A stretch of 32,000 bases of DNA from Pyrodictium occultum (GTDB lineage Archaea > Thermoproteota > Thermoprotei_A > Sulfolobales > Pyrodictiaceae), in assembly GCF_001462395.1 (NCBI RefSeq), contig NZ_LNTB01000001.1:1110001-1142000 (forward strand). The letters run 5' to 3'. Of the stretch, positions 10,804 through 31,638 are shown in pieces. The stretch's first letter is position 1; each line of letters starts with the position of its first letter. The position numbers and the translations under genes are program-made. The notes under the pieces were generated by a model. The model was not told the origin of the DNA. It did no database searches and worked only from the letters and a program-made list of their open reading frames with translations.

Positions 10804-11583
10804 ATGGATGAGCGCGGGCGAGAGCAACTGGAGTGGGTCAAAGAAGCTGCGAAGAGGCTGGCCCAGAGGCAGAGGGGAGGAGGGGGCCCGCGGAGCAAGC
10901 TCGTGGAGGCGATAGCTGTACTACTGCTAGCGAGGCCTATGAGGGCCGCCGAGATAGCCCAGGTGGTGGGCAAGCCTACCAGGTATGTTAGCAGCTACCT
11001 GAGCTACTGGAGGACGCGGGGCCTCTTCGACTACGAAAACGGGTTCTGGGTGCTCACCCCGCAGGGGGAGGATTACGCCAAGAGCATACTAGAGAGGGAG
11101 ATGAACAGCCGCATAGCCCAGTACGCCGCACTAGCAAGACAGATACTATCGGGTAGCAATACACAGGTTAGTCAGGCAGCAAACAACAATGGAGCGGGCG
11201 GCGCGGGCGAGCAGTCAGGCAGAGTCCAGCCGTTCATTGCCACTCATACCATTAATCTCGACAAGAAACAGCAGGAGAGGATCCTCGCAGCCTGCATACG
11301 GGCACTGCTCGAGGAGCTCGAGATAGGGGAGGATGAGCGCCAGGTACTGGAGACCCTGCTAGACCACTACCGCAGATGGGGGATGACCTACATGTACCTA
11401 GACCAGCTGGAGAAGGAGCTAGAGGCTGACAGGGTATGGCTTGTCGGAGTGCTCCGCGGCCTCCAGACGAAGGGCCTCGTGTACCTCTACAGCGACCGGA
11501 GACTCGGCATGAGGATAGGGCTATCAAAGAGGGTTAAGGGCGCCATTGCGGCCTGCACGCGCACAGCCCTGGGGAGGGTATAG
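10804..11583 (+). CDS. protein with two winged-helix domains; possible WhiP/Cdt1-like replication initiator or plasmid-type DNA-binding protein
   Basis: Start trimmed to ATG 10804, because upstream the ORF overlaps the P-loop gene. The N-terminal wH is LLLARPMRAAEIAQVVGKPTRYVSSYLSYWRTRGLFDYENGFWVLTPQG. The C-terminal wH is MTYMYLDQLEKELEADRVWLVGVLRGLQTKGLVYLYSD. It lies next to a long repeat-rich non-coding region. Confidence 0.5.
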   Translation: MDERGREQLEWVKEAAKRLAQRQRGGGGPRSKLVEAIAVLLLARPMRAAEIAQVVGKPTRYVSSYLSYWRTRGLFDYENGFWVLTPQGEDYAKSILEREMNSRIAQYAALARQILSGSNTQVSQAANNNGAGGAGEQSGRVQPFIATHTINLDKKQQERILAACIRALLEELEIGEDERQVLETLLDHYRRWGMTYMYLDQLEKELEADRVWLVGVLRGLQTKGLVYLYSDRRLGMRIGLSKRVKGAIAACTRTALGRV

Positions 11584-11926
11584 TCTCCACCCCTACGCTC
11601 CCCCTGGAACATGGGTATTCTTGCGCCAGGGATTACCGCCCCGGGACCGTGCGGTATACATGAATAATGGTAGAGGAGGACATCATGCTTTGATATACTC
11701 CTGGTTTATGTTACCCAGCATTACCTCTAATAGATGCCAATACATGGTTTATACAAACCAGCAAAACTCTACAAGATAAAATAGAGGCACCATAGATGCT
11801 AGGAGCAGGCTAGGCGCGGTCAACAGAGTTTACAGCATACATGAGTAGATTGCAGGAGCCAAGGCCGCTATTGATAAGATATGAGCCGATGCTCCGAGCG
11901 CCGCCCTGGCGCTCTCTACAGGCTCG

Positions 11927-12274
11927 CTATAGCAGGGAGTAGGGAGCCCCCCGGGGCAGGGTGCTCTGCCACCCCTGAGGCCTGGCCTGGTTGTAGTCGT
12001 GGTTAGTAGGGTCCCAGGCGTGCCGGCAGGCCTTGGAGCATTGCCGCCTGTTAGAGGCCGAACGCCCCCTCCGGTTGCGGAGCTTCATGCCCAGGCAGCT
12101 GAGGCAGCCGCCGCCCACTTCAAGCCACTTACACCCCACCTCTGTATGCCCGCTGACTTCGAGGGCGTGCTCTACATACTCGTAGATGAGGCTGGATACA
12201 GCCCTCTCACCCACCCGCAACTCAGCAGGGTCACGAGGGCGGGGAGGCCGGGGTCGAGGGTGGAGCGCTACCAC
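11927..12274 (-). CDS. possible small zinc-ribbon protein
   Basis: 115-aa ORF with a GTG start. It carries CLSC...(18 aa basic)...CSKACRHAW, a CxxC...CSxxCR Zn-ribbon-like signature. The N-terminal third is Pro/Arg-rich and dubious, and the overlapping + strand ORF looks non-coding. Confidence 0.3.
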   Translation of the reverse strand: MVALHPRPRPPRPRDPAELRVGERAVSSLIYEYVEHALEVSGHTEVGCKWLEVGGGCLSCLGMKLRNRRGRSASNRRQCSKACRHAWDPTNHDYNQARPQGWQSTLPRGAPYSLL

Positions 12275-12451
12275 ATCTGGCTCTCAACGCATCTCAACAG
12301 CCTGTGGAGGAGGCTGAACTGGGGGTCAAAGTATACGTCTACATAGAGATCCCCGAGGAAGCTGCAACGGGGAGGAGGGGGAGGCCTGTTGAGAGGGCTG
12401 GGCAGGAGGGTTAACAGGCGTTTGCCATCACCGGCGCCGCGGGTGATTCGT

Positions 12452-12580
12452 ACCGACTGGGTCGGTTAATCTTACTGACGGTGTCGGCACGATTCACCGG
12501 CACGGTCGGTGAATGCCCGTCAGACAAACGTGCGACACCCGTCGCATAGGCGTCAGACGCCCGTAAGACGCCGTCTTACG
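12452..12580. repeat. cluster of five different short palindromes/hairpins
   Basis: accgac-tgg-gtcggt (12452-12466); attcaccg-N7-cggtgaat (12492-12514); tgcgac-accc-gtcgca (12531-12546); ggcgtc-a-gacgcc (12549-12561); cgtaagacg-c-cgtcttacg (12562-12580). The motif a[ct][ga]cccgt recurs at about 20-23-bp spacing (12513, 12535, 12558, 12578). Confidence 0.8.
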
Positions 12581-12650
12581 CCCGTTATACGGTCGGAGTG
12601 TTGGGGTGGGCAAAAATGCCCACCGCCTTTCAATTCTATCTGTTAGATCC

Positions 12651-12714
12651 TTTTGAGCAGTTATGGGCAATTTTGCCCGCCCTGACCCCTGTAGGTGGTT
12701 CTGAATCGAGGCTT
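12651..12714. repeat. box pair copy 1: module A (39 bp, 12651-12689) then module B (25 bp, 12690-12714)
   Basis: A = ttttgagcagttatgggcaattttgcccgccctgacccc, containing the dyad gggcaa-tt-ttgccc and a C-string. B = tgtaggtggttctgaatcgaggctt. A related dyad, gggcaaaaatgccc, lies at 12608-12621. Confidence 0.85.
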
Positions 12715-12857
12715 GACTGCTTCCGCCCTGACGCCCCCGGGCCCTCGCCACCACGTCTACCAGCCTTGAGACGTCCCTCGAGGAGACCCCTCCCCCCTCT
12801 TTCACCACAGTTTCAGTGTCTTTTGGATTCTTCGCTCTCCATTGCATAGAATTGAAA

Positions 12858-12898
12858 GTTTAGCGCTAAACTTAGCGTGCTAAGGAATGCTAAGGAAT
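12858..12898. repeat. 14-bp perfect palindrome followed by a 2 x 10-bp tandem repeat
   Basis: The palindrome gtttagcgctaaac is at 12858-12871, and gctaaggaat occurs twice at 12879-12898. In addition, tttcaattctat (12628-12639) is the inverted complement of atagaattgaaa (12846-12857). Confidence 0.8.
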
Positions 12899-12942
12899 GT
12901 TGCAGAACCAGCGCCCTCCATGGCCTCCCACCGCCCCTAGGG

Positions 12943-12975
12943 GCTAGGGGGGCTTGTAGCTCCAGCAACTCCTCC
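12943..12975. repeat. direct repeat copy 1 (gctagggggg...tccagcaactcctcc)
   Basis: About 26/33 identity with 13603-13634, including the exact 10-mer tccagcaact. Confidence 0.6.
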
Positions 12976-12992
12976 TCGAGCGGCCGCTCGAG
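12975..12992. repeat. 18-bp perfect palindrome ctcgagcggccgctcgag
   Basis: The sequence is self-complementary over all 18 nt. Confidence 0.9.
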
Positions 12993-13034
12993 AGGCCTGC
13001 CTGGGGGCAGCGCTGGGCCTGGCCTGCGGGACTT

Positions 13035-13074
13035 GAAATTTAACATGAAATTTAACATCCCTGAAATTTAACAT
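13035..13074. repeat. 3 x 12-bp iteron gaaatttaacat inside an AT-rich core
   Basis: Exact copies at 13035-13046, 13047-13058 and 13063-13074. The surrounding 13031-13160 is the most AT-rich stretch of the window. Confidence 0.85.
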
Positions 13075-13173
13075 TATTAAATCAACAAGAATATCTTTTA
13101 GATACTCAAGAATCTCTTCATTGAGAATGAGCATCATGCCAAGGTATCTATTAGAAATCCTCTCGGCTATCAC

Positions 13174-13193
13174 GGTCTGAGGGGGTCTGAGGG
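13174..13193. repeat. 2 x 10-bp tandem repeat ggtctgaggg
   Basis: Exact tandem copies at 13174-13183 and 13184-13193. Confidence 0.85.
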
Positions 13194-13240
13194 GCTGGGC
13201 CGGGGCTCGGGGGCGCCGCGCTATAGTGTACGCCCCGGAG

Positions 13241-13260
13241 CATCTGGGAGCATCTGGGAG
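13241..13260. repeat. 2 x 10-bp tandem repeat catctgggag
   Basis: Exact tandem copies. They are followed by the palindrome gagtcc-g-ggactc (13261-13273) and by gtgtttg twice (13276-13282 and 13288-13294). Confidence 0.85.
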
Positions 13261-13602
13261 GAGTCCGGGACTCCGGTGTTTGTTAGCGTGTTTGCCTGTG
13301 CTTCTCTGTTTAACGTCCATGTTTATTGACTATCGTTCTAGGGTATGCGTCCGCCAGCCTCCCACATGTTAAGCGTGCGCAGCCGCCACCCGGGCCCGCC
13401 CACAGAAATTTCAGGGGGCAGAGAGCGGGCCTGCGACTCTACCCTAATAATATACAGTATACTGCTAGCTACGGGATCCCTCAAGGAGCTCCTCCAGCTC
13501 CCTAAGGCTTTCAGCGATACGCCTGGGCAACCCCCTTAACCGTTCAACACCACCCCGAGCGTTCAAAAACGCGGAGAGCGCGGGGCCCCATGCCTGCAGG
13601 AA

Positions 13603-13634
13603 GCTAGGGGGCTCCTGCTTCCAGCAACTTCTCC
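13603..13634. repeat. direct repeat copy 2 (gctaggggg...tccagcaacttctcc)
   Basis: See 12943-12975. It is followed by ttaaactattaaacaagga, which loosely resembles ttaacattattaaatcaacaagaa at 13067-13091. Confidence 0.6.
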
Positions 13635-13706
13635 CGGCTAAACAACGCGTTAAACTATTAAACAAGGATGGGGGGTGGGGCGGGGGAGGCTCTGCGGGAC
13701 GCGTCC

Positions 13707-13768
13707 CGGGGTCAGGGCGGGCAAAATTGCCCAAACTGCTCAAAAGCCTCGATTCAGAACCACCTACA
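13707..13768. repeat. box pair copy 2: inverted relative to copy 1 and with module order swapped (B then A when read on the minus strand)
   Basis: The reverse complement reads tgtaggtggttctgaatcgaggctt + ttgagcagtttgggcaattttgcccgccctgacccc. Module B matches 25/25. Module A differs only at ttatggg versus tttggg. Confidence 0.85.
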
Positions 13769-13848
13769 CGATCGAAATCACCGGTGAGTGCGGCCCGGGC
13801 GGTCAGCCGCCTGAGCGCCGAGGCGGGGCCCGGGGTCTTGCCGACCAG

Positions 13849-14538
13849 TTATGCCTGCTTTTTGCTTCTGTCTTCAAAATAGTAGCTACATATATCTCTG
13901 ACCGGGCATTCTGAGCATTTGGGGCTTCTTGCCGTGCACACCTTTCTCGCAAAGTCCAGCACTCCGTAGTTGAAGTCTCTGGCGCTCTCAGGGTCTTTGG
14001 GCACGAGCATTTTTGCGAAGGCCCAGAGCTTGGGGTCTGTGTGAGGCCTCTTCTTGGCCGACTTCACGCTGAAAACCCTCTCTATGACCCTTATCATGTT
14101 CCTGTCGAGGAGGGGTTCGGGCCTGTCACAGGCCCCCAGGAGCACCTCCGAGGCTATGTAGTCGCCCACTCCGGGTAGCTTCTTGAGCTTCTCCTTGTCG
14201 CATGGGATCCTCCCTCCAAGCTTCTCCTCGACGAGCCTGGCCAGCTCTATGAGGTGCCGAGTCCTCTGGTGCTCTATGCCCAGCGGGCGTATGACCTCCT
14301 TCACCTCATTCTCTTCAGCGTTCAGGAGCGCCTTGGGCGACGGGTACCTCTTAATGAACTCCTCGTAAACCTTGATCACCTGCTTTGTGGTTGTCTTTCT
14401 CAGGAGGAGCGCCGCGACGAGGATGGCCCATGCATTGCTAGTATTCCTCCAAGGCAGGCCCCTGTCCCCATGCACCCTGTACCACTCTATTATCCTGCGC
14501 CTGAACTCCCTGATCTTCCCGCTGTCGGCCAGGAGCAA
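13849..14538 (-). CDS. HhH-GPD DNA glycosylase with a [4Fe-4S] cluster loop; Mig-like (T/U:G mismatch) rather than EndoIII
   Basis: The HhH hairpin is LPGVGDYIASEV, with Tyr where EndoIII has its catalytic Lys (GVGRKTA). The catalytic-Asp region is LLDRNMIRVIERVF. The C-terminal cluster is CTARSPKCSECPVRDIC (Cx6Cx2Cx5C). Confidence 0.8.
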   Translation of the reverse strand: MLLADSGKIREFRRRIIEWYRVHGDRGLPWRNTSNAWAILVAALLLRKTTTKQVIKVYEEFIKRYPSPKALLNAEENEVKEVIRPLGIEHQRTRHLIELARLVEEKLGGRIPCDKEKLKKLPGVGDYIASEVLLGACDRPEPLLDRNMIRVIERVFSVKSAKKRPHTDPKLWAFAKMLVPKDPESARDFNYGVLDFARKVCTARSPKCSECPVRDICSYYFEDRSKKQA

Positions 14539-14539
14539 G

Positions 14540-14637
14540 GAGGCCCCCTTTGGCTCCCGCCTTGAGGCACTTATGCTCGGTGAATATATATGCTTTATAT
14601 ATGTTTTTTAATATGCTTCATTGGGGGGTGCGTGCTG
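14540..14637. promoter_or_regulatory. AT-rich divergent promoter region between the glycosylase and endonuclease genes
   Basis: The sequence gaatatatatgctttatatatgttttttaatatg offers TATA-like elements on both strands, 30-45 nt upstream of ATG 14638 (+) and of start 14538 (-). Confidence 0.4.
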
Positions 14638-15510
14638 ATGCAACGCTTCACAGTGTCTCTGTGCAGGCGCGCGGTCAAGAAGGCTGTGAGGAGGGGCGCC
14701 CTCCCAGACGAGTACCTGCTCTACGATGACCCTCGCCGCAAGGTCACACACGCAGACCTGCTGTGTGAGGGCACCGTGAGGGGGCGTGATTGGGAGTCCT
14801 TCTCCAGCGTAGATGAGTGGATTGAGTGGCTGGGTTGGAGTACTGTTCTGCTGGATGAAAGGGACTACCTCACAGCCGCCGTTCACGCCCTCGATCTGGC
14901 CCCGAGGATCCCGGCGACGGATTACGGGACGACGAGGCAGAGGGATCTGGGACAGCTCTTGACAGACGCGATAAGGGGCTTCCTGGGCGAGATAGCCCTC
15001 GCCAAGTGGCTAGGCGAGAGGTTCGAAGTCAGAGTCGTGCTCGACTACAGGAAGGGCCCCCTGCCAGAATTCCTGCCCTCAGACATAAGGCTGGTGAACG
15101 GTAGGCCTCCCAGGCTCAATGTGAGCATAAAGACAACTAAGCTGAGAGGCATATGGCTGGACATACCTTACAGCCAGATAGAGAACAGCCACGTCTTCGT
15201 CCTGGTCAGGGTCGGGGTGTCGAGGGAGCACTTCCTCGCATTCCTCAAGGAGATAAGCGCCATTAAAGACAAGATCCTGTCGAAGGCGAGGGAGCTGGGG
15301 ATAATATCTGAGGATGATCTGGCCAGCATTTGGGATGCAATCCCAGAGTTTACCAAGATACCGGCCTGCATCGCCGGTTTCTTCGACAAGAGAGAGTATG
15401 AGGATGCAGTTAAGGAGAGGACGAGCATACTCCTGGCTGACGGGGAGGAGAAGAAGAGGTTTGTTGTCAACAAGTTTGTGGGCTACTGGCACCCCGAGCA
15501 GGACAAGTAG
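14638..15510 (+). CDS. candidate type II restriction endonuclease (PD-(D/E)xK-like signature)
   Basis: 290 aa from ATG 14638; the ORF-track start at 14590 lies inside the TATA-like tract. GFLGEIALAKWL...LPSDIRLVNGRPPRLNVSIKTTK fits E...D-x13-SxK. The gene sits between the Mig-like glycosylase and the C5 methyltransferase. No family recognised. Confidence 0.45.
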   Translation: MQRFTVSLCRRAVKKAVRRGALPDEYLLYDDPRRKVTHADLLCEGTVRGRDWESFSSVDEWIEWLGWSTVLLDERDYLTAAVHALDLAPRIPATDYGTTRQRDLGQLLTDAIRGFLGEIALAKWLGERFEVRVVLDYRKGPLPEFLPSDIRLVNGRPPRLNVSIKTTKLRGIWLDIPYSQIENSHVFVLVRVGVSREHFLAFLKEISAIKDKILSKARELGIISEDDLASIWDAIPEFTKIPACIAGFFDKREYEDAVKERTSILLADGEEKKRFVVNKFVGYWHPEQDK

Positions 15511-15549
15511 GATAGGCGAAGCCCTGGCCGAGATACTGGACGAAACAGA

Positions 15550-15897
15550 TTAAAGGTCTCGAATGAGCCCCTCCCAGTCCTCCCTCCTGCGCCTGAGAGC
15601 CCCCGAACTCACGATGAAGTGGAGAGTCCTCGAGAAGTTCCCAATGCCCTCAAACTCTATTTTGACGTCATTCGAGACTTTGAAGCCCTGACTCCTGAGG
15701 GTCTCGATGAGCCTCTCCCTGTTCGCCCCTGCCGCCATGGAAGAGGAATGTGTCTGGGAATGTCTGCAACCTCGCCCTTTCTCTCAGCGTTAGCATTGCT
15801 CTGTCTCGATCATAGTGGTAGCCGTGGGTCCCCCCGCCGCCGTAGGCGACCACAGTGTAGGCTGGCTTCAGCGGGTGGATCCTCCTGTAGACCAGGC
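15550..15897 (-). pseudogene. C-terminal methyltransferase segments in shifted frames (motifs IX-X region)
   Basis: A second frame (about 15960 down to 15668) reads IPPGENHEFVRGT...HPLKPAYTVVAYGGGG...RMLTLRERARLQTFPDTFLFHGG, the conserved C5-MTase C-terminal block. The original frame then resumes at 15738-15550 (RERLIETLRSQGF...GIGN...). The apparent shifts lie at G/C runs near 15957-15961 and 15725-15735. Confidence 0.6.
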
Positions 15898-17040
15898 TTA
15901 TGCCCCTCCCCTCAACCTCCCACCGCGTCCCCCTGACGAACTCGTGGTTCTCACCCGGGGGATTCTCTTCATCCTCTCAACCACCACGGGATCCTCCCTC
16001 GGGGGCTCTGTGGTGGAGTCGGGGAGCATGAGCCTGTCCACAGGCCTGCCCAGGTAGCCCAGCTCCCTCAGAACGGCCTCATGTTGCCTCAGGGCCTCCT
16101 CGATCTCCTCCGGGCTGGCCCTCTCCACTCCGTTGACTCTCAGGTAGTCCTCTACTGCGCTGAAAGTGAGCCTGTCCCACACTCTCCTCTTCCACTCCAG
16201 GGCGCGCTGAGTGCCCAGCTCGCGCCAGAGGCCCTCCCACTTCCGCATCACCTCCCTGTACTTGTCGTCGAGCCTGTCCAGCCGGTCGCCTTCGAAGACC
16301 TCGATGGGTGTGAGAGGGTACTTGCGGAAGAGCCAGCCTCTCCCGCGCAGGGCGGCCTCCAGCCTGCCCCTCAGCCTCCAAAGCGCGGCTGTGCTCCCCC
16401 GGAGCAGGTCTTTCCTCACGCCCACTATGATCAGCCGCTCCCTCTTCTGGGGGACTCCGAGGCTGGAGAAGTGGACGATGCCGCTGAAGATTATCTCGTA
16501 GCCCTCAGCTCCGTCCGCGCCGTCCGCCTTTATGAGCCTCCTCACCTCATCCCAGCGGAGCTTCAGGTTGGCGAAGTCGTCCAGGATGACCTTGTAGGCG
16601 AGCCCCTTATTGGCGCTGACGAGGCCGGGCACGTTCTCGAACACGAAGGCCTTGGGCTGGAGGGTGGCGAGAGCCCTCACGAAGTGGGCGTACAGCCTCC
16701 CCCTCCTGACCTCTATCCCCCTCCTGTCCCAGTCGGGGCCGCGGACAATGGAGAAGTCCTGGCATGGGGGGCCACCCGCCACCACGTCAACCCCCGCATC
16801 AGAGAGCCCGGCAAAGTCCACCCGGGCCACGTCGCAGGCCAGGATGACGCCCGGCCGAGCCTGGACTTCCAGCTCCCCACCGCACAGCTCCAGCTTGAGC
16901 CCCAGGTTCCTCGCGTACGTCATCGCCGCGGGGACCCGCAACTCGTTAGCGAACACAATCCTGAACCTCCCCGTCTGGACGAGGCCCAGGTCAAGCCCCC
17001 CAGCACCCGAGAATAGCGATGCGACCCTGTACACCTTCAC
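15898..17040 (-). CDS. DNA (cytosine-5)-methyltransferase, N-terminal and central part (motifs I-VIII plus the variable region)
   Basis: Motif I LFSGAGGLDLG, motif IV GGPPCQDFS, motif VI FVFENVPGL, motif VIII QKRERLIIVG. The GTG start overlaps the stop of the upstream RHH gene (GTGA). Confidence 0.85.
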   Translation of the reverse strand: MKVYRVASLFSGAGGLDLGLVQTGRFRIVFANELRVPAAMTYARNLGLKLELCGGELEVQARPGVILACDVARVDFAGLSDAGVDVVAGGPPCQDFSIVRGPDWDRRGIEVRRGRLYAHFVRALATLQPKAFVFENVPGLVSANKGLAYKVILDDFANLKLRWDEVRRLIKADGADGAEGYEIIFSGIVHFSSLGVPQKRERLIIVGVRKDLLRGSTAALWRLRGRLEAALRGRGWLFRKYPLTPIEVFEGDRLDRLDDKYREVMRKWEGLWRELGTQRALEWKRRVWDRLTFSAVEDYLRVNGVERASPEEIEEALRQHEAVLRELGYLGRPVDRLMLPDSTTEPPREDPVVVERMKRIPRVRTTSSSGGRGGRLRGGA

Positions 17041-17237
17041 ACTTCACCACCTCCCATCTCCCTCTTAACCTTAGACGCCACAATCGACTTCTCCGACAGC
17101 CACGACAGCACTATATTCCTGACAAGCTCAGCATCGTCGCTACCCATCACGCCACGAAGCATCTCTATAAGCTCCCACTGCTCCCGCGTAAAGGTGACCT
17201 GAACCCTCTTAACCCTCCCCCTCCTCTGCTCGCTCAT
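17037..17237 (-). CDS. ribbon-helix-helix (CopG/Arc/MetJ-like) DNA-binding protein, likely regulator of the methyltransferase operon
   Basis: 66 aa from ATG 17237. The segment RVKRVQVTFTREQWELIEMLRGVMGSDDAELVRNIVLSWL gives a beta strand plus two helices. It has a 4-nt overlap with the MTase start. Confidence 0.65.
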   Translation of the reverse strand: MSEQRRGRVKRVQVTFTREQWELIEMLRGVMGSDDAELVRNIVLSWLSEKSIVASKVKREMGGGEV

Positions 17238-17535
17238 AGCACACCAAACTCCACAGAAACACACTACGCACACACGGCTAATAAAGGTTCATTCACCCCG
17301 CCCAGGCCAGCCCTCTTAAATTCCTCGGGGCCGTGAATCTGAGTCATGTCGCGGACTGGCACGAGATATTATTTTGAGCGCGATCCTCTGACTCTTTTCC
17401 TGCCGTGCTTCTATCAGGTATAATGTTGAAAAGCCCTAAAAAGACGCTTTGCTCTCTGTTATTGGCTCAAAAACGGTGTTGCACCCGCGGAAAATGGTGT
17501 CAAAGACTGCAAGAAGCTCCAATGCAGGCCATTGC

Positions 17536-17829
17536 TTAGTTTTGCACGGTAAGTGGAATATGCTTAGTAGCTTCTGAGGGTTTAGCGTGAAGAAATCCGC
17601 GAGAGGAGGAGTAATGTAGGACTGTTATCGGCGTTGCTTGGAGCTCTGCTAGCTCCTGCTGTCTGAGCGAGATCTCCGCCTGAATCCATATAGTGACCAG
17701 CTGGAAGTATATGAGCGTGGCGATGAGTCCGTCATGTAAGCCTAGGCTGTATAATATTAGGGAGGGTATCAGTGCCAGCAGGAGAATTGCGAAGCCCAAG
17801 TCCTTTAAGGGCACGCGCGGCACGGGCAA
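17536..17829 (-). CDS. small membrane protein (hypothetical)
   Basis: 97-aa ORF with two hydrophobic helices (LGFAILLLALIPSLILYSL and LIATLIYFQLVTIWI) in a lower-GC stretch of the island. Confidence 0.35.
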   Translation of the reverse strand: MPVPRVPLKDLGFAILLLALIPSLILYSLGLHDGLIATLIYFQLVTIWIQAEISLRQQELAELQATPITVLHYSSSRGFLHAKPSEATKHIPLTVQN

Positions 17830-17866
17830 GACAGGCCCCCACAGCGTTCCCGATGTTGCCAGGCGG

Positions 17867-18712
17867 TTAAGTGAGGCCCACCTCAGCCAGGTGCTCCAGG
17901 TATTTGGGGTATGCCTGGTCTGCCTCCCCTAGGAGGTCTTCGTACCTCGCCTCGCTCACCCTCAGCTCCCCAAACCTGCTCTGCATGAACCTCGCGGCCT
18001 CCCTCCCCACAGTTTTAACCATGAGCCTCCATGCAACCTTCCTCATGTACTTGGGCAGTACTAGGCCGTGCCTCACCGCGTACCTTCTGGGCTGGTGCCT
18101 GCCAACCCTCCTAGGGGCTACCCGCATCAGCAGCTCAAGGGTCTCCCTAGAGAAGTATATCCACTCGCACTGCTTGGCCGAGCCCCTGAGGCCCATGTAG
18201 TACCTGCAGAACCCTTTATCGCCGGGGCACACCAGCCTCTCGGTTGTGACCCCAACTCCCGGTATCTCCACGGTCCCGCCAGGATCCCAGGACTCAATCA
18301 TCCTCAGCACGTGCGTGTACCTGGCCCCTGACTCGATCATGACCCTGTAGACGGTGTAGTAGACCGGGTGGTTCTCCCCCAGGAGTTCTAGGGTCCTCCT
18401 AACGTCCTCGAGGCTTATGGGGTACGGCTTGACGTCCAGCCTGTACCCCCGGGAGGGCACCGCCTCCGTTAGCCACCCGAATGCTTCGGGGCTGATCCTC
18501 CTCCTGTAGTAGAGGTATTGGACGTAGTGCCTGAATACGTTCCGGAGCCACCTATTCGGGTGGCTCACAACATAGTCGACCAGGTCCTCTGAGAGCTCCC
18601 TGCCCTCCAGGTATTTCGTGAACAGGCTCCTGTAGTACTTGAGTGTGGCGGGATCCCTGACCCTCCTGCGCCCCTTACGCTCCCTCAGGATGCTCTCGAA
18701 GTCGCGTCCCAC
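17867..18712 (-). CDS. archaeal tyrosine recombinase/integrase (SSV/pNOB8 superfamily), catalytic part
   Basis: ESGARYTHVL supplies the first catalytic Arg, LPKYMRKVAWRLM is the K/RxxR block that replaces HxxR in SSV-type integrases, and AARFMQSRFGELRVSEARYEDL supplies the nucleophilic Tyr. Confidence 0.7.
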   Translation of the reverse strand: MGRDFESILRERKGRRRVRDPATLKYYRSLFTKYLEGRELSEDLVDYVVSHPNRWLRNVFRHYVQYLYYRRRISPEAFGWLTEAVPSRGYRLDVKPYPISLEDVRRTLELLGENHPVYYTVYRVMIESGARYTHVLRMIESWDPGGTVEIPGVGVTTERLVCPGDKGFCRYYMGLRGSAKQCEWIYFSRETLELLMRVAPRRVGRHQPRRYAVRHGLVLPKYMRKVAWRLMVKTVGREAARFMQSRFGELRVSEARYEDLLGEADQAYPKYLEHLAEVGLT

Positions 18713-18897
18713 CTCAATGTGACGCCGGAGAAGCTGAGGCCGGGCATCCTCCTCAAGCCGTCCCTGAACTCCCTGACAGCGAAGCTGAGAATGGCCCTCT
18801 TCAGGTACTCATCCCTTGAGGCCGGGGCCGTGATTTTGAGTGCGAGTCCGTAGTCAACGCTACCATCCTCCCCGACAAGCCCCAGGGGCTTATCCAT
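18685..18897 (-). CDS. probable integrase N-terminal segment in a different frame
   Basis: 70-aa ORF (MDKPLGLVGEDGSVDYGLALKI...SFSGVTLRW) that runs into the integrase ORF. One extra G in the run at about 18707-18710 (minus-strand aggtggga) would give ...VTLRWGRDFESIL... as one 351-aa protein. Confidence 0.5.
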   Translation of the reverse strand: MDKPLGLVGEDGSVDYGLALKITAPASRDEYLKRAILSFAVREFRDGLRRMPGLSFSGVTLRWDATSRAS

Positions 18898-18984
18898 GCC
18901 CGGGGATCCACCGTATAGGCTGTTGGAGGGGGTATTACAGTCATATAAAAGGTGCTCTCTGGCCCCTGTCCTGGAGCGGTGTAG

Positions 18985-30592: not shown

Positions 30593-31327
30593 ATGCAGCT
30601 AGTGTGTATAAGATGCGGCAGGCCGCTAGTTGAGGGAGGGAGTGTAGGCCCCCTCTGCCTGGAGTGCTTCATCGAAACCCATAGGATCCTATGCGTCCCC
30701 GAGCGGCTAGAATTCGACTACTGCAGGTACTGCGGGTCTATCAGGATTGGGTATAAATGGGTCGAGGGGGGAGAGCTAGGTGAGGCCTCGGCAAAATTTC
30801 TTGAACGCCACCTCAGCGAGCATGTAGAGCCCTGCGTTAAGGAGGTTGAGAGCTTCCGCCTCGAGTCCGTGGAGCCTCTCACAGCTCCCTCTTGGCGTAC
30901 AATGTACAGGGTGGTCTTCTCCGCCAGGCTACGGGGTGTCGATAGAGCGGTAAGGGTGAGCTACACCGTTGAGGTGAGGGCTAAGCCAACCATATGCCCG
31001 GCTTGTAAGGACGCGCGCGGAGGCGATTACAACGTCCTCCTCCAGGTGAGGGGTGAGAAGCCTGCAAAGCTGGCAAAGGTTTTATCACCACTGTTGGAGT
31101 CTAGCAGGCAGCTCGCCAACTCTATAGTAGATATAGTGGAGTATGGTGATGGTGTAGACTTCCTGCTTCTAGACCGTGGCAGTGCATCTAAGATAGTACG
31201 GCAGCTTAGGAAGTACTATCGCGTCCGCCTCGGCGCCACTGGCGAGGATGTTGGCATAACCTCCCGAGGCAGGCTAAGGAGGCGCCTCGTATTATCTCTC
31301 CACCTGCTCGAGGAGAGGCGGAGATGA
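30593..31327 (+). CDS. NMD3-family protein (archaeal homologue of the 60S export adaptor)
   Basis: Start at ATG 30593. N-terminal Cys pairs are CIRCG...CLEC...CRYCG, and later CPAC, typical of the NMD3 N-terminal domain. Confidence 0.7.
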   Translation: MQLVCIRCGRPLVEGGSVGPLCLECFIETHRILCVPERLEFDYCRYCGSIRIGYKWVEGGELGEASAKFLERHLSEHVEPCVKEVESFRLESVEPLTAPSWRTMYRVVFSARLRGVDRAVRVSYTVEVRAKPTICPACKDARGGDYNVLLQVRGEKPAKLAKVLSPLLESSRQLANSIVDIVEYGDGVDFLLLDRGSASKIVRQLRKYYRVRLGATGEDVGITSRGRLRRRLVLSLHLLEERRR

Positions 31328-31638
31328 GCGACGAGCTGGACTACGTGCCCGAGGATGTACTTAAGGAGGTGCTGGAGGCTGAGCGGGAGATACTTCCTAG
31401 GCGTAGAAGGAGGATGAAGCCCTACCCGAGCTCACGCGACTTGGTGGAGGCTGTGATAGAGGCGGTTAGGAGCTTCAGCGGCCATCCTGACGGGCTCCCC
31501 GAGTACGTGCTGCGGATACTTGAGGAGAAGGGGTTCGAAACCAGGCATGTCACTATAAAGCGCATATGGCGCACTTACGAGGCTCTCGTCCGAAGGGGCG
31601 TGATAGGCGACCGCCTGGGAGTTCTTGAGCCGGAGTAG
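31324..31638 (+). CDS. hypothetical protein
   Basis: 104-aa ORF whose ATG overlaps the NMD3-like stop (ATGA), indicating translational coupling. Confidence 0.5.
   Translation: MSDELDYVPEDVLKEVLEAEREILPRRRRRMKPYPSSRDLVEAVIEAVRSFSGHPDGLPEYVLRILEEKGFETRHVTIKRIWRTYEALVRRGVIGDRLGVLEPE

Follow-up and report, generated by a model that had tools for sequence, protein, structure and literature searches.

The subject of this report is two pairs of short repeated boxes, modules A and B, in a 32-kb window of the Pyrodictium occultum genome (the whole stretch of DNA that was analysed, 32,000 nucleotides). Each box pair is 64 bp long, and the two pairs are inverted relative to each other, lie about 1 kb apart and differ in module order, which is swapped. 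They stand in a gene-free stretch at one end of an island specific to this species, downstream of the replication initiator gene whiP. The locus is surrounded by ordinary chromosomal genes, which Pfam assigns as OTCase, AglB, NAD kinase and AlaX to one side and as ThermoDBP-RP, Nre and eRF1 to the other. The boxes and their immediate setting are listed here with positions counted along the window.

12290-13848 (1.56 kb): gene-free stretch, rich in repeats and palindromes, which holds the boxes and lies between the left island junction and a glycosylase gene, at the integrase-distal end of the island.
12597-12622, minus strand: A°, TGGGCATTTTTGCCCACCCCAACACT, a weak inverted A-like copy (20/26), 57 nt left of copy 1.
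12651-12689, plus strand: module A, copy 1, with head CTTTTGAGCAGTTA, imperfect dyad TGGGCAATTTTGCCC (12664-12678) and C-rich tail GCCCTGACCCC (12679-12689) pointing to the AT-rich centre.
12690-12714, plus strand: module B, copy 1, TGTAGGTGGTTCTGAATCGAGGCTT, asymmetric and placed inward of A.
12713-12737, plus strand: A*, TTGACTGCTT-CCGCCCTGACGCCCC, a degenerate A directly 3' of copy-1 B in which the tail motif CCGCCCTGAC is kept and the 14-nt dyad is gone.
About 13030-13160: AT-rich trough between the box pairs, 24-31% GC in 80-nt windows, the deepest of the region.
13034, 13046 and 13062: iterons, three exact 13-nt direct repeats TGAAATTTAACAT in the trough (0.11 expected).
13708-13746, minus strand: module A, copy 2, 38 nt, with the tail again toward the AT-rich centre.
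13744-13768, minus strand: module B, copy 2, placed outward of A and sharing a CTT overlap with its head.

The core of module A at 12664-12689 is the reverse complement of 13708-13733 over 26/26 nucleotides, and module B at 12690-12714 is that of 13744-13768 over 25/25, as found both by reading the sequence and with a repeat finder. Full-length A measures 39 nt in copy 1 (12651-12689) and agrees at 38/39 positions overall, copy 2 lacking one base at an indel that reads GTTATGGG in copy 1 and GTT-TGGG in copy 2. On the plus strand of 12651-12714 copy 1 reads A, TTTTGAGCAGTTATGGGCAATTTTGCCCGCCCTGACCCC, followed by B; on the minus strand of 13705-13768 copy 2 reads B followed by A, and CTT is common to both modules at the B/A joint. 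At the module edges identity drops abruptly from 100% to none, the flanks being without residual similarity. A and B each occur exactly twice in the window, even when 3 mismatches are allowed, and were found 0 times in 100 shuffles. A first, sequence-only reading of this DNA had described inverted, order-swapped A/B repeats about 1 kb apart, with B identical at 25/25 and A differing by a single indel, and this description is borne out by direct reading, the repeat finder and the shuffles. The weak third dyad which it placed at 12608-12621, GGGCAAAAATGCCC, also proved real (3 matches against 0.11 expected) and sits within A°. In an independent assembly of another sequencing run (Logan DRR667394, locus L001), colinear at 99.8%, both pairs are identical and have the same order and orientation; the swap is therefore not an artefact of the assembly of one data set.

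The two full A modules form an inverted pair with their tails inward, 1054 bp between dyad centres and mirror symmetry about the AT-rich trough; relative to A, B takes the inner position at the left site and the outer position at the right one. Read along the plus strand, both sites are (A-type)(B-type) with an equal offset of 30.5 nt, each module being flipped in place. A-type elements number four within 140 nt at site 1 and one at site 2. The order may best be read as several A sites clustered around B: copy 1 is A°, A, B, A* and copy 2 is B, A, and the common unit would then be B-A in inverted repeat, with an additional perfect A across B in copy 1. With A-B-A* set against B-A, the true circular permutation previously proposed becomes unnecessary, since an A-type element comes after B each time (the full A in copy 2 and A* in copy 1). 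The related proposal that both copies are windows onto an A-B array is supported in part by A* after copy-1 B. No convincing A residue was found upstream of copy-2 B. Simple inversion histories were worked through by hand and abandoned in favour of the A-B-A* cluster, as one or two inversions cannot turn A-B into B-A. Individually flipped modules are unusual yet explicable.

Because of the A indel, the two copies stand in different reading frames. The open reading frames (ORFs) of 12290-13848 gave no Pfam, PHROG or PADLOC match, and since the indel breaks any shared frame, protein coding was rejected and the earlier description of the repeats as non-coding holds. The same interval contains no Rfam family at gathering or permissive thresholds and no tRNA according to ARAGORN, and the box regions show no folding beyond that of shuffled sequence; an RNA gene was likewise dismissed. 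Downstream of the TATA-like iterons, a possible 190-nt transcript has a fold z of only -1.7, and the 990-nt interior has a fold z of -3.7, calculated from only 20 shuffles. Near and distant BLAST of the region against phage and plasmid collections yielded no match, and known phage or plasmid DNA was accordingly discarded as an identity for it. Further repeats and palindromes were found in the stretch.

12626-12639 and 12846-12858: 13-nt perfect inverted repeat, CTTTCAATTCTAT and ATAGAATTGAAAG, which brackets box pair 1.
12878-12899, 13174-13194 and 13237-13260: tandem repeats, 10-nt ones among them.
13778, 12493-12516 and 12424-12446: palindromes TCACCGGTGA, ATTCACCG..CGGTGAAT and ATCACC..GGTGAT, respectively.

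Perfect 8-nt palindromes number 17 in the stretch against 6.7±2.4 in dinucleotide shuffles (reached in 0/500), the highest density in the window, and there are 7 perfect 10-nt palindromes (12290-13860), both counts standing well above the shuffles; examples are AGCGGCCGCT, CCCCTAGGGG, TTAGCGCTAA, GGACGCGTCC and TCACCGGTGA. Palindromes of the TCACCG…CGGTGA type with variable spacers are also present just outside the box pairs, two left of pair 1 (12424-12516) and a third right of pair 2 (13776-13789), and these three could be a further set of sites.

So far the boxes are known from P. occultum only: on the searches made here their sequence appears new, and their layout familiar. The exact pattern of module A was not found in the GTDB genome collection, which apparently lacks the source genome, and neither A nor B was found as an exact pattern in viral contigs. 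An exact scan of metagenomes for A gave one match, in a contig of 65% GC without B and without flanking similarity, which was taken as chance. At up to 6 substitutions there are no other copies of A or B in 42 kb of P. occultum DNA (the window and L012), and none at the loci of Pyrodictium abyssi (L003), Hyperthermus butylicus (L004), Pyrolobus fumarii (L006/L007) and a metagenomic relative (L011). Two elements with a related integrase (L008 and L009) and two metagenomic contigs with a sibling restriction-modification (R-M) cassette (L014 and L015) are also without boxes, and the idea that the boxes travel as cargo of the R-M cassette or of the integrase module was dropped for their absence there. 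A likeness of box B to TTAGATCCTTGTAGTCGAGGCTT in L009 was dropped as well, the alignment not rising above a shuffled null.

The modular make-up of A and B, and the 13-nt inverted repeat that brackets pair 1 in the manner of terminal repeats, would suit a dispersed family of short mosaic repeats (MITE-, BIME- or box-element-like; that is, resembling miniature inverted-repeat transposable elements or bacterial interspersed mosaic elements) which happens by chance to be present twice here. The distribution speaks against such a family, as there are no copies beyond these in the 42 kb, no exact A or B in the viral contigs, no A in GTDB and a single, unrelated-looking metagenome match. No target-site duplication was seen, and the inverted repeat around pair 1 has neither a flanking duplication nor a counterpart at pair 2. 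We hold this explanation to be very unlikely.

Element L009 does contain something comparable in kind. At its positions 14306-15660 lies a gene-free stretch of about 1.35 kb, bracketed by a 20-nt inverted repeat (80%), in which (T)ATTTAAGAC(R) recurs 6-7 times, pointing either way, and AAATGTT(A/T)CG three times. By its appearance the stretch is a candidate replicator or regulatory module of L009, which suggests that islands of this type carry cis-acting non-coding modules, though not homologous ones.

The neighbourhood of whiP raises the question of whether the boxes are part of a chromosomal origin. In Sulfolobus, oriC3 requires WhiP, whose gene lies alongside it, and the in vitro WhiP sites flank the edges of the downstream intergenic region (PMC3607249). 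The motif ucm is bound by UBP and needed for Sulfolobus origin activity, the oligonucleotide ATTATACAAAAG being given in the supplement of PMC12141716, and the Ori-Finder-Arch preprint describes the WhiP-type origin pattern as inverted repeat (IR)(+)/ucm/IR(-). The corresponding features in the window are the following.

10804-11583, plus strand: whiP, which encodes the Cdt1-like replication initiator; the ORF matches P. occultum CF15_05890 with 100% identity.
11584-12010: native WhiP-type origin, with CCACCCCTAC at about 11586-11600, an AT trough at 11680-11800, ucm TTATACAAAC at 11749-11758 and GTAGTCGTGGTTA at 11993-12005.
12049-12087, minus strand: 3' remnant of a small ORF (…KLRNRR…, the last dozen codons), whose promoter and first codons lie at 18889-18960.

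The whiP locus of P. occultum was compared with its counterparts in P. abyssi, H. butylicus, P. fumarii and the metagenomic relative. All five genomes have in common, downstream of whiP, a CCACCCCTAC-type element, an AT trough with TTATACAAAC and a GTAGTTGTGGTAG-type element. The ucm is exact in P. abyssi, H. butylicus and the metagenomic relative and takes the form of an inverted pair, TTTGTATAAT/ATTATACAAA, in P. fumarii. The origins of the relatives are at L003 10775-11090, L004 10778-11015, L007 6784-7100 and L011 5991-6310, and the outer elements are spaced about 390 nt apart in P. occultum versus about 215-270 nt in the relatives. After whiP in P. abyssi, H. butylicus and the metagenomic relative come 0.3-0.9 kb of non-coding DNA, a small ORF, ThermoDBP-RP and Nre; in P. 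fumarii the small ORF likewise follows whiP, with different genes beyond. This small ORF (61-80 aa, ending in …YWE(V/I)K(I/L)RNRRRAFGL) adjoins the origin in 4/4 relatives (L003 11197-11439, L004 11054-11263, L007 7111-7296, L011 6427-6669) and is destroyed by the island insertion in P. occultum.

The native WhiP origin is complete at 11584-12010 and excludes the A/B boxes. They are outside it because IR/ucm/IR is complete without them and is kept in four relatives that have no boxes. Nevertheless, boundary WhiP sites as at Sulfolobus oriC3 could in principle make the boxes an outlying part of the host origin: they lie 1.1-2.2 kb downstream of whiP in an AT-rich region with repeats, and the Sulfolobus sites also flank a downstream intergenic region (PMC3607249). 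It must be noted, however, that the four relatives keep the whole native arrangement with neither boxes nor insertion, that the only ucm TTATACAAAC in the window is within the native origin and none lies between the boxes, and that the remnant of the disrupted gene separates the boxes from the origin. With whiP ending at 11583, and the native origin and the ORF remnant intervening, the boxes are not immediately adjacent to the gene. We regard this explanation as very unlikely; the boxes probably belong to the island and not to the native origin. Of the earlier view of the boxes as functional binding sites, what remains most economical is putative protein-binding boxes, and membership of the chromosomal origin has to be given up.

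Homology to the relatives ends at about 12087 and restarts at about 18889, and these limits define an island with the following contents.

12088-18888 (about 6.8 kb): insertion replacing the body of the small ORF; P. abyssi, H. butylicus, P. fumarii and the metagenomic relative do not have it.
13849-14538, minus strand: HhH-GPD thymine/mismatch DNA glycosylase (PADLOC E = 1e-42), its stop codon 81 nt from box pair 2.
14590-15510, plus strand: type II restriction endonuclease (PADLOC E = 1.9e-129), its C-terminus rearranged relative to L014.
15735-17040, minus strand: C5 cytosine methyltransferase (PADLOC E = 1.5e-178; ORF 15898-17040).
17037-17273, minus strand: small RHH-like protein upstream of the methylase, recognized by eye, with a weak PHROG match of unknown function.
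17867-18891, minus strand: SSV-family (Phage_integr_3) integrase pseudogene, aligning to residues 92-426 of 435-aa homologues and frameshifted near 18709-18718.

A small membrane ORF is also encoded in the island. Exact-protein look-up of the ORFs 14590-15510, 15898-17040 and 31324-31638 returned no record. The R-M cassette has its sibling in the metagenomic contigs L014/L015 at 66-73% DNA identity. The Aeropyrum pernix spindle-shaped virus 1 provirus has an annotated homologue of the glycosylase, 70% identical, which links the R-M/glycosylase cassette to crenarchaeal proviruses. As a separate observation, an independent metagenomic contig of the same species (L002, Logan SRR5453782) ends at window position 12147, 60 nt into the insertion; the cause could be a heterogeneous population, or repeats that broke the assembly at the island junction.

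Several of the island genes are damaged. The integrase copy is a pseudogene, because full-length relatives of about 430 aa are common and intact in Desulfurococcales chromosomes, and its residues 1-91 are found nowhere in the window. A partitioned Int(C) in the style of SSV, represented by a 281-aa ORF, was considered and set aside in favour of a deletion scar, the family being intact at about 430 aa, the N-terminal 91 residues gone and att (attachment-site) repeats absent. The methylase has 380 aa versus 470 aa in L014 and covers 1-363/469 of the PADLOC model and 1-165/324 of the Pfam model, so that it is probably truncated or frameshifted, and further indels are present in the methylase of the independent assembly L001. 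The endonuclease has 306 aa versus 349 aa in L014, and relative to that contig an 89-nt inverted patch lies at 15572-15660. At 15510-15722 (L001 14707-14802) the two P. occultum assemblies differ by a small rearrangement that includes a 41-nt inverted patch; the convergent 3' ends of the endonuclease and methylase genes are a local inversion-prone spot. Judged from its sequence, the island is a decaying mosaic that was horizontally acquired.

The integrase bears on another explanation of the boxes, that a site-specific recombinase, either the integrase of the island or an Xer-type enzyme of the host, acts on them and that the 1-kb segment between them is invertible. The inverted orientation of the pairs, the dyad with a short spacer inside A and an integrase gene in the same island are all what such a system would offer. 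But this integrase is N-terminally truncated and frameshifted, and the modules would keep their order if a segment between identical inverted sites were inverted. The sole independent assembly, moreover, shows the same orientation, and no att-like direct repeats are found at the island ends, where a search for a direct repeat linking 12000-12700 with 18600-18960 gave nothing. The recombination junction or invertible segment put forward in the sequence-only reading is not upheld on these same grounds, and of the explanations considered this one is given the least weight.

We favour, with less than even confidence, the reading of A and B as predicted cis-acting protein-binding boxes of a replicator or maintenance region acquired with the island. 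The island inserted beside the native WhiP-dependent origin, and the boxes belong to a non-coding module at its integrase-distal end. Module A, a dyad of 14-16 bp with an asymmetric C/G-rich tail, would suit a dimeric winged-helix or RHH-type protein, and the asymmetric B may be a second site. Inverted boxes on either side of an unwinding element are the typical layout of archaeal and plasmid replicators. As the inverted pair of full A modules around the iteron-bearing trough of 24-31% GC has this layout, the island's module is on this reading most likely an orphaned replicator or maintenance region. The putative boxes are ranked first because the recurrence of A, the symmetric placing of the full A modules and the dyad-plus-tail build resemble origin boxes and plasmid replicators. 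Also in favour of it are the exact inverted matches, unique in the window and repeated in the independent assembly, the non-coding nature of the stretch, its density of palindromes, its place inside an insertion that four relatives lack, and the parallel in L009, a gene-free iteron stretch bracketed by an inverted repeat. The sequence shows the anatomy and location of the boxes, their species specificity, their position outside the native origin and the decay of the island genes; protein binding, and any replicator function, are what we infer.

A number of observations weigh against the protein-binding reading. Pfam, PHROG and PADLOC reveal no replication-initiator or partition gene in the island. 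The integrase, methylase and endonuclease genes are decaying, and the non-coding module could be junk too. In L014/L015 the same R-M cassette is followed by an unrelated gene-free stretch without boxes, and the element with the closest integrase, L008, has no equivalent stretch. A spacing of 1 kb is long for an origin. Finally, a recent copy event explains the sharp edges of identity no less well than selection over a long time.

Such a copy event is central to the explanation that the boxes are a functionless relic: the decaying, rearrangement-prone island would recently have undergone template switching, short-patch gene conversion or inverted duplication, with the swapped order as a record of successive small rearrangements. 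The decay and rearrangement of the island (the integrase frameshift, the 89-nt and 41-nt inverted patches, the shortened endonuclease and methylase) agree with it, as do the sharp-edged identity between unrelated flanks and the CTT microhomology at the copy-2 B/A joint. The excess of perfect palindromes would fit quasi-palindrome correction via template switching. In addition, the boxes were found in no other organism among the scanned collections and relatives, the island is without an initiator gene and its siblings are without conserved boxes. A relic accounts less readily for two separate modules that are each perfect with everything between them unrelated, for A-type elements that recur four to five times, for the symmetry of the full A modules around the AT/iteron trough, and for a change from A-B to B-A that one or two inversions, followed by hand, did not reach. 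On balance we consider a relic the main rival, somewhat less probable than putative protein-binding boxes, with which the tentative preference remains.

A stronger version of the preferred reading is that the iteron-bearing A/B module is a functional second replicator, which was delivered by a mobile element to the side of an existing WhiP origin and has survived the decay of that element's genes, A and B being recognition sites for a host-encoded or other initiator. We hold this to be improbable. Capture of extrachromosomal elements has been proposed to have created the multiple origins of archaeal chromosomes. If the boxes bind protein and the module fires or is maintained, the locus would show an archaeal chromosome in the act of gaining a replicator, from an island that lies within 100 bp of a WhiP-type origin and has lost genes and kept cis elements, and the capture model for multi-origin chromosomes would become testable in one organism. 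If instead the boxes are only scars of rearrangement, this is a decaying integrative R-M island of the ordinary sort; the lasting by-product is then that the WhiP-type origin (IR/ucm/IR) has been cleanly defined across Pyrodictiaceae.

Compared with known systems, the boxes share features with several. Like the WhiP-type origins Sulfolobus oriC3 and Aeropyrum oriC2, the region is next to whiP and has inverted repeats around a gene-free, AT-rich segment; unlike in them, no ucm lies between the A/B boxes and a triplet-type repeat is missing, and the boxes are absent from the orthologous loci and lie in a foreign insertion. Attachment or inversion sites would be accompanied by a functional recombinase and matching core repeats, neither of which was found in the island. 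Mosaic repeats such as bacterial BIME/REP (repetitive extragenic palindrome) and box elements and archaeal MITEs also combine modules in varied order and orientation, one of them palindromic, but exist in many dispersed copies, whereas A and B are known at two loci 1 kb apart in the 42 kb covered.

The resemblance to Orc1/Cdc6 origins, with the arrangement ORB(-)/DUE/ORB(+) of origin recognition boxes (ORBs) and a DNA unwinding element (DUE), is in the inverted boxes of dyad plus asymmetric G/C-rich sequence that face an AT-rich segment, and the weaker extra copies recall mini-ORBs. An AT-rich element does lie between the inverted boxes. The differences are the spacing of about 1 kb and module B, which has no ORB counterpart. 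Within A the G-rich string is 5' of the dyad on its strand (GGGGTCAGGGC-GGGCAAAATTGCCC). The ORB layout has the G-rich string 3' of the dyad, and the Ori-Finder-Arch preprint also describes it in this way. The ORB-core pattern CTCCANNGGAAAC has no match in 11.5-14 kb and is at chance level in the window, and Pfam detected no orc1/cdc6 or AAA initiator among the 30 larger ORFs of the window.

The iteron-rich gene-free stretch of the L009 element is comparable, with sequence similarity not above background. From the iteron-type replicators of plasmids and other elements the island differs in having no Rep gene among its integrase pseudogene, membrane ORF, RHH protein, methylase, endonuclease and glycosylase. 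Direct repeats do lie in its AT-rich segment, and what the two have in common is the three 13-nt direct repeats, the AT-rich core, the flanking inverted repeats and the location in a mobile island.

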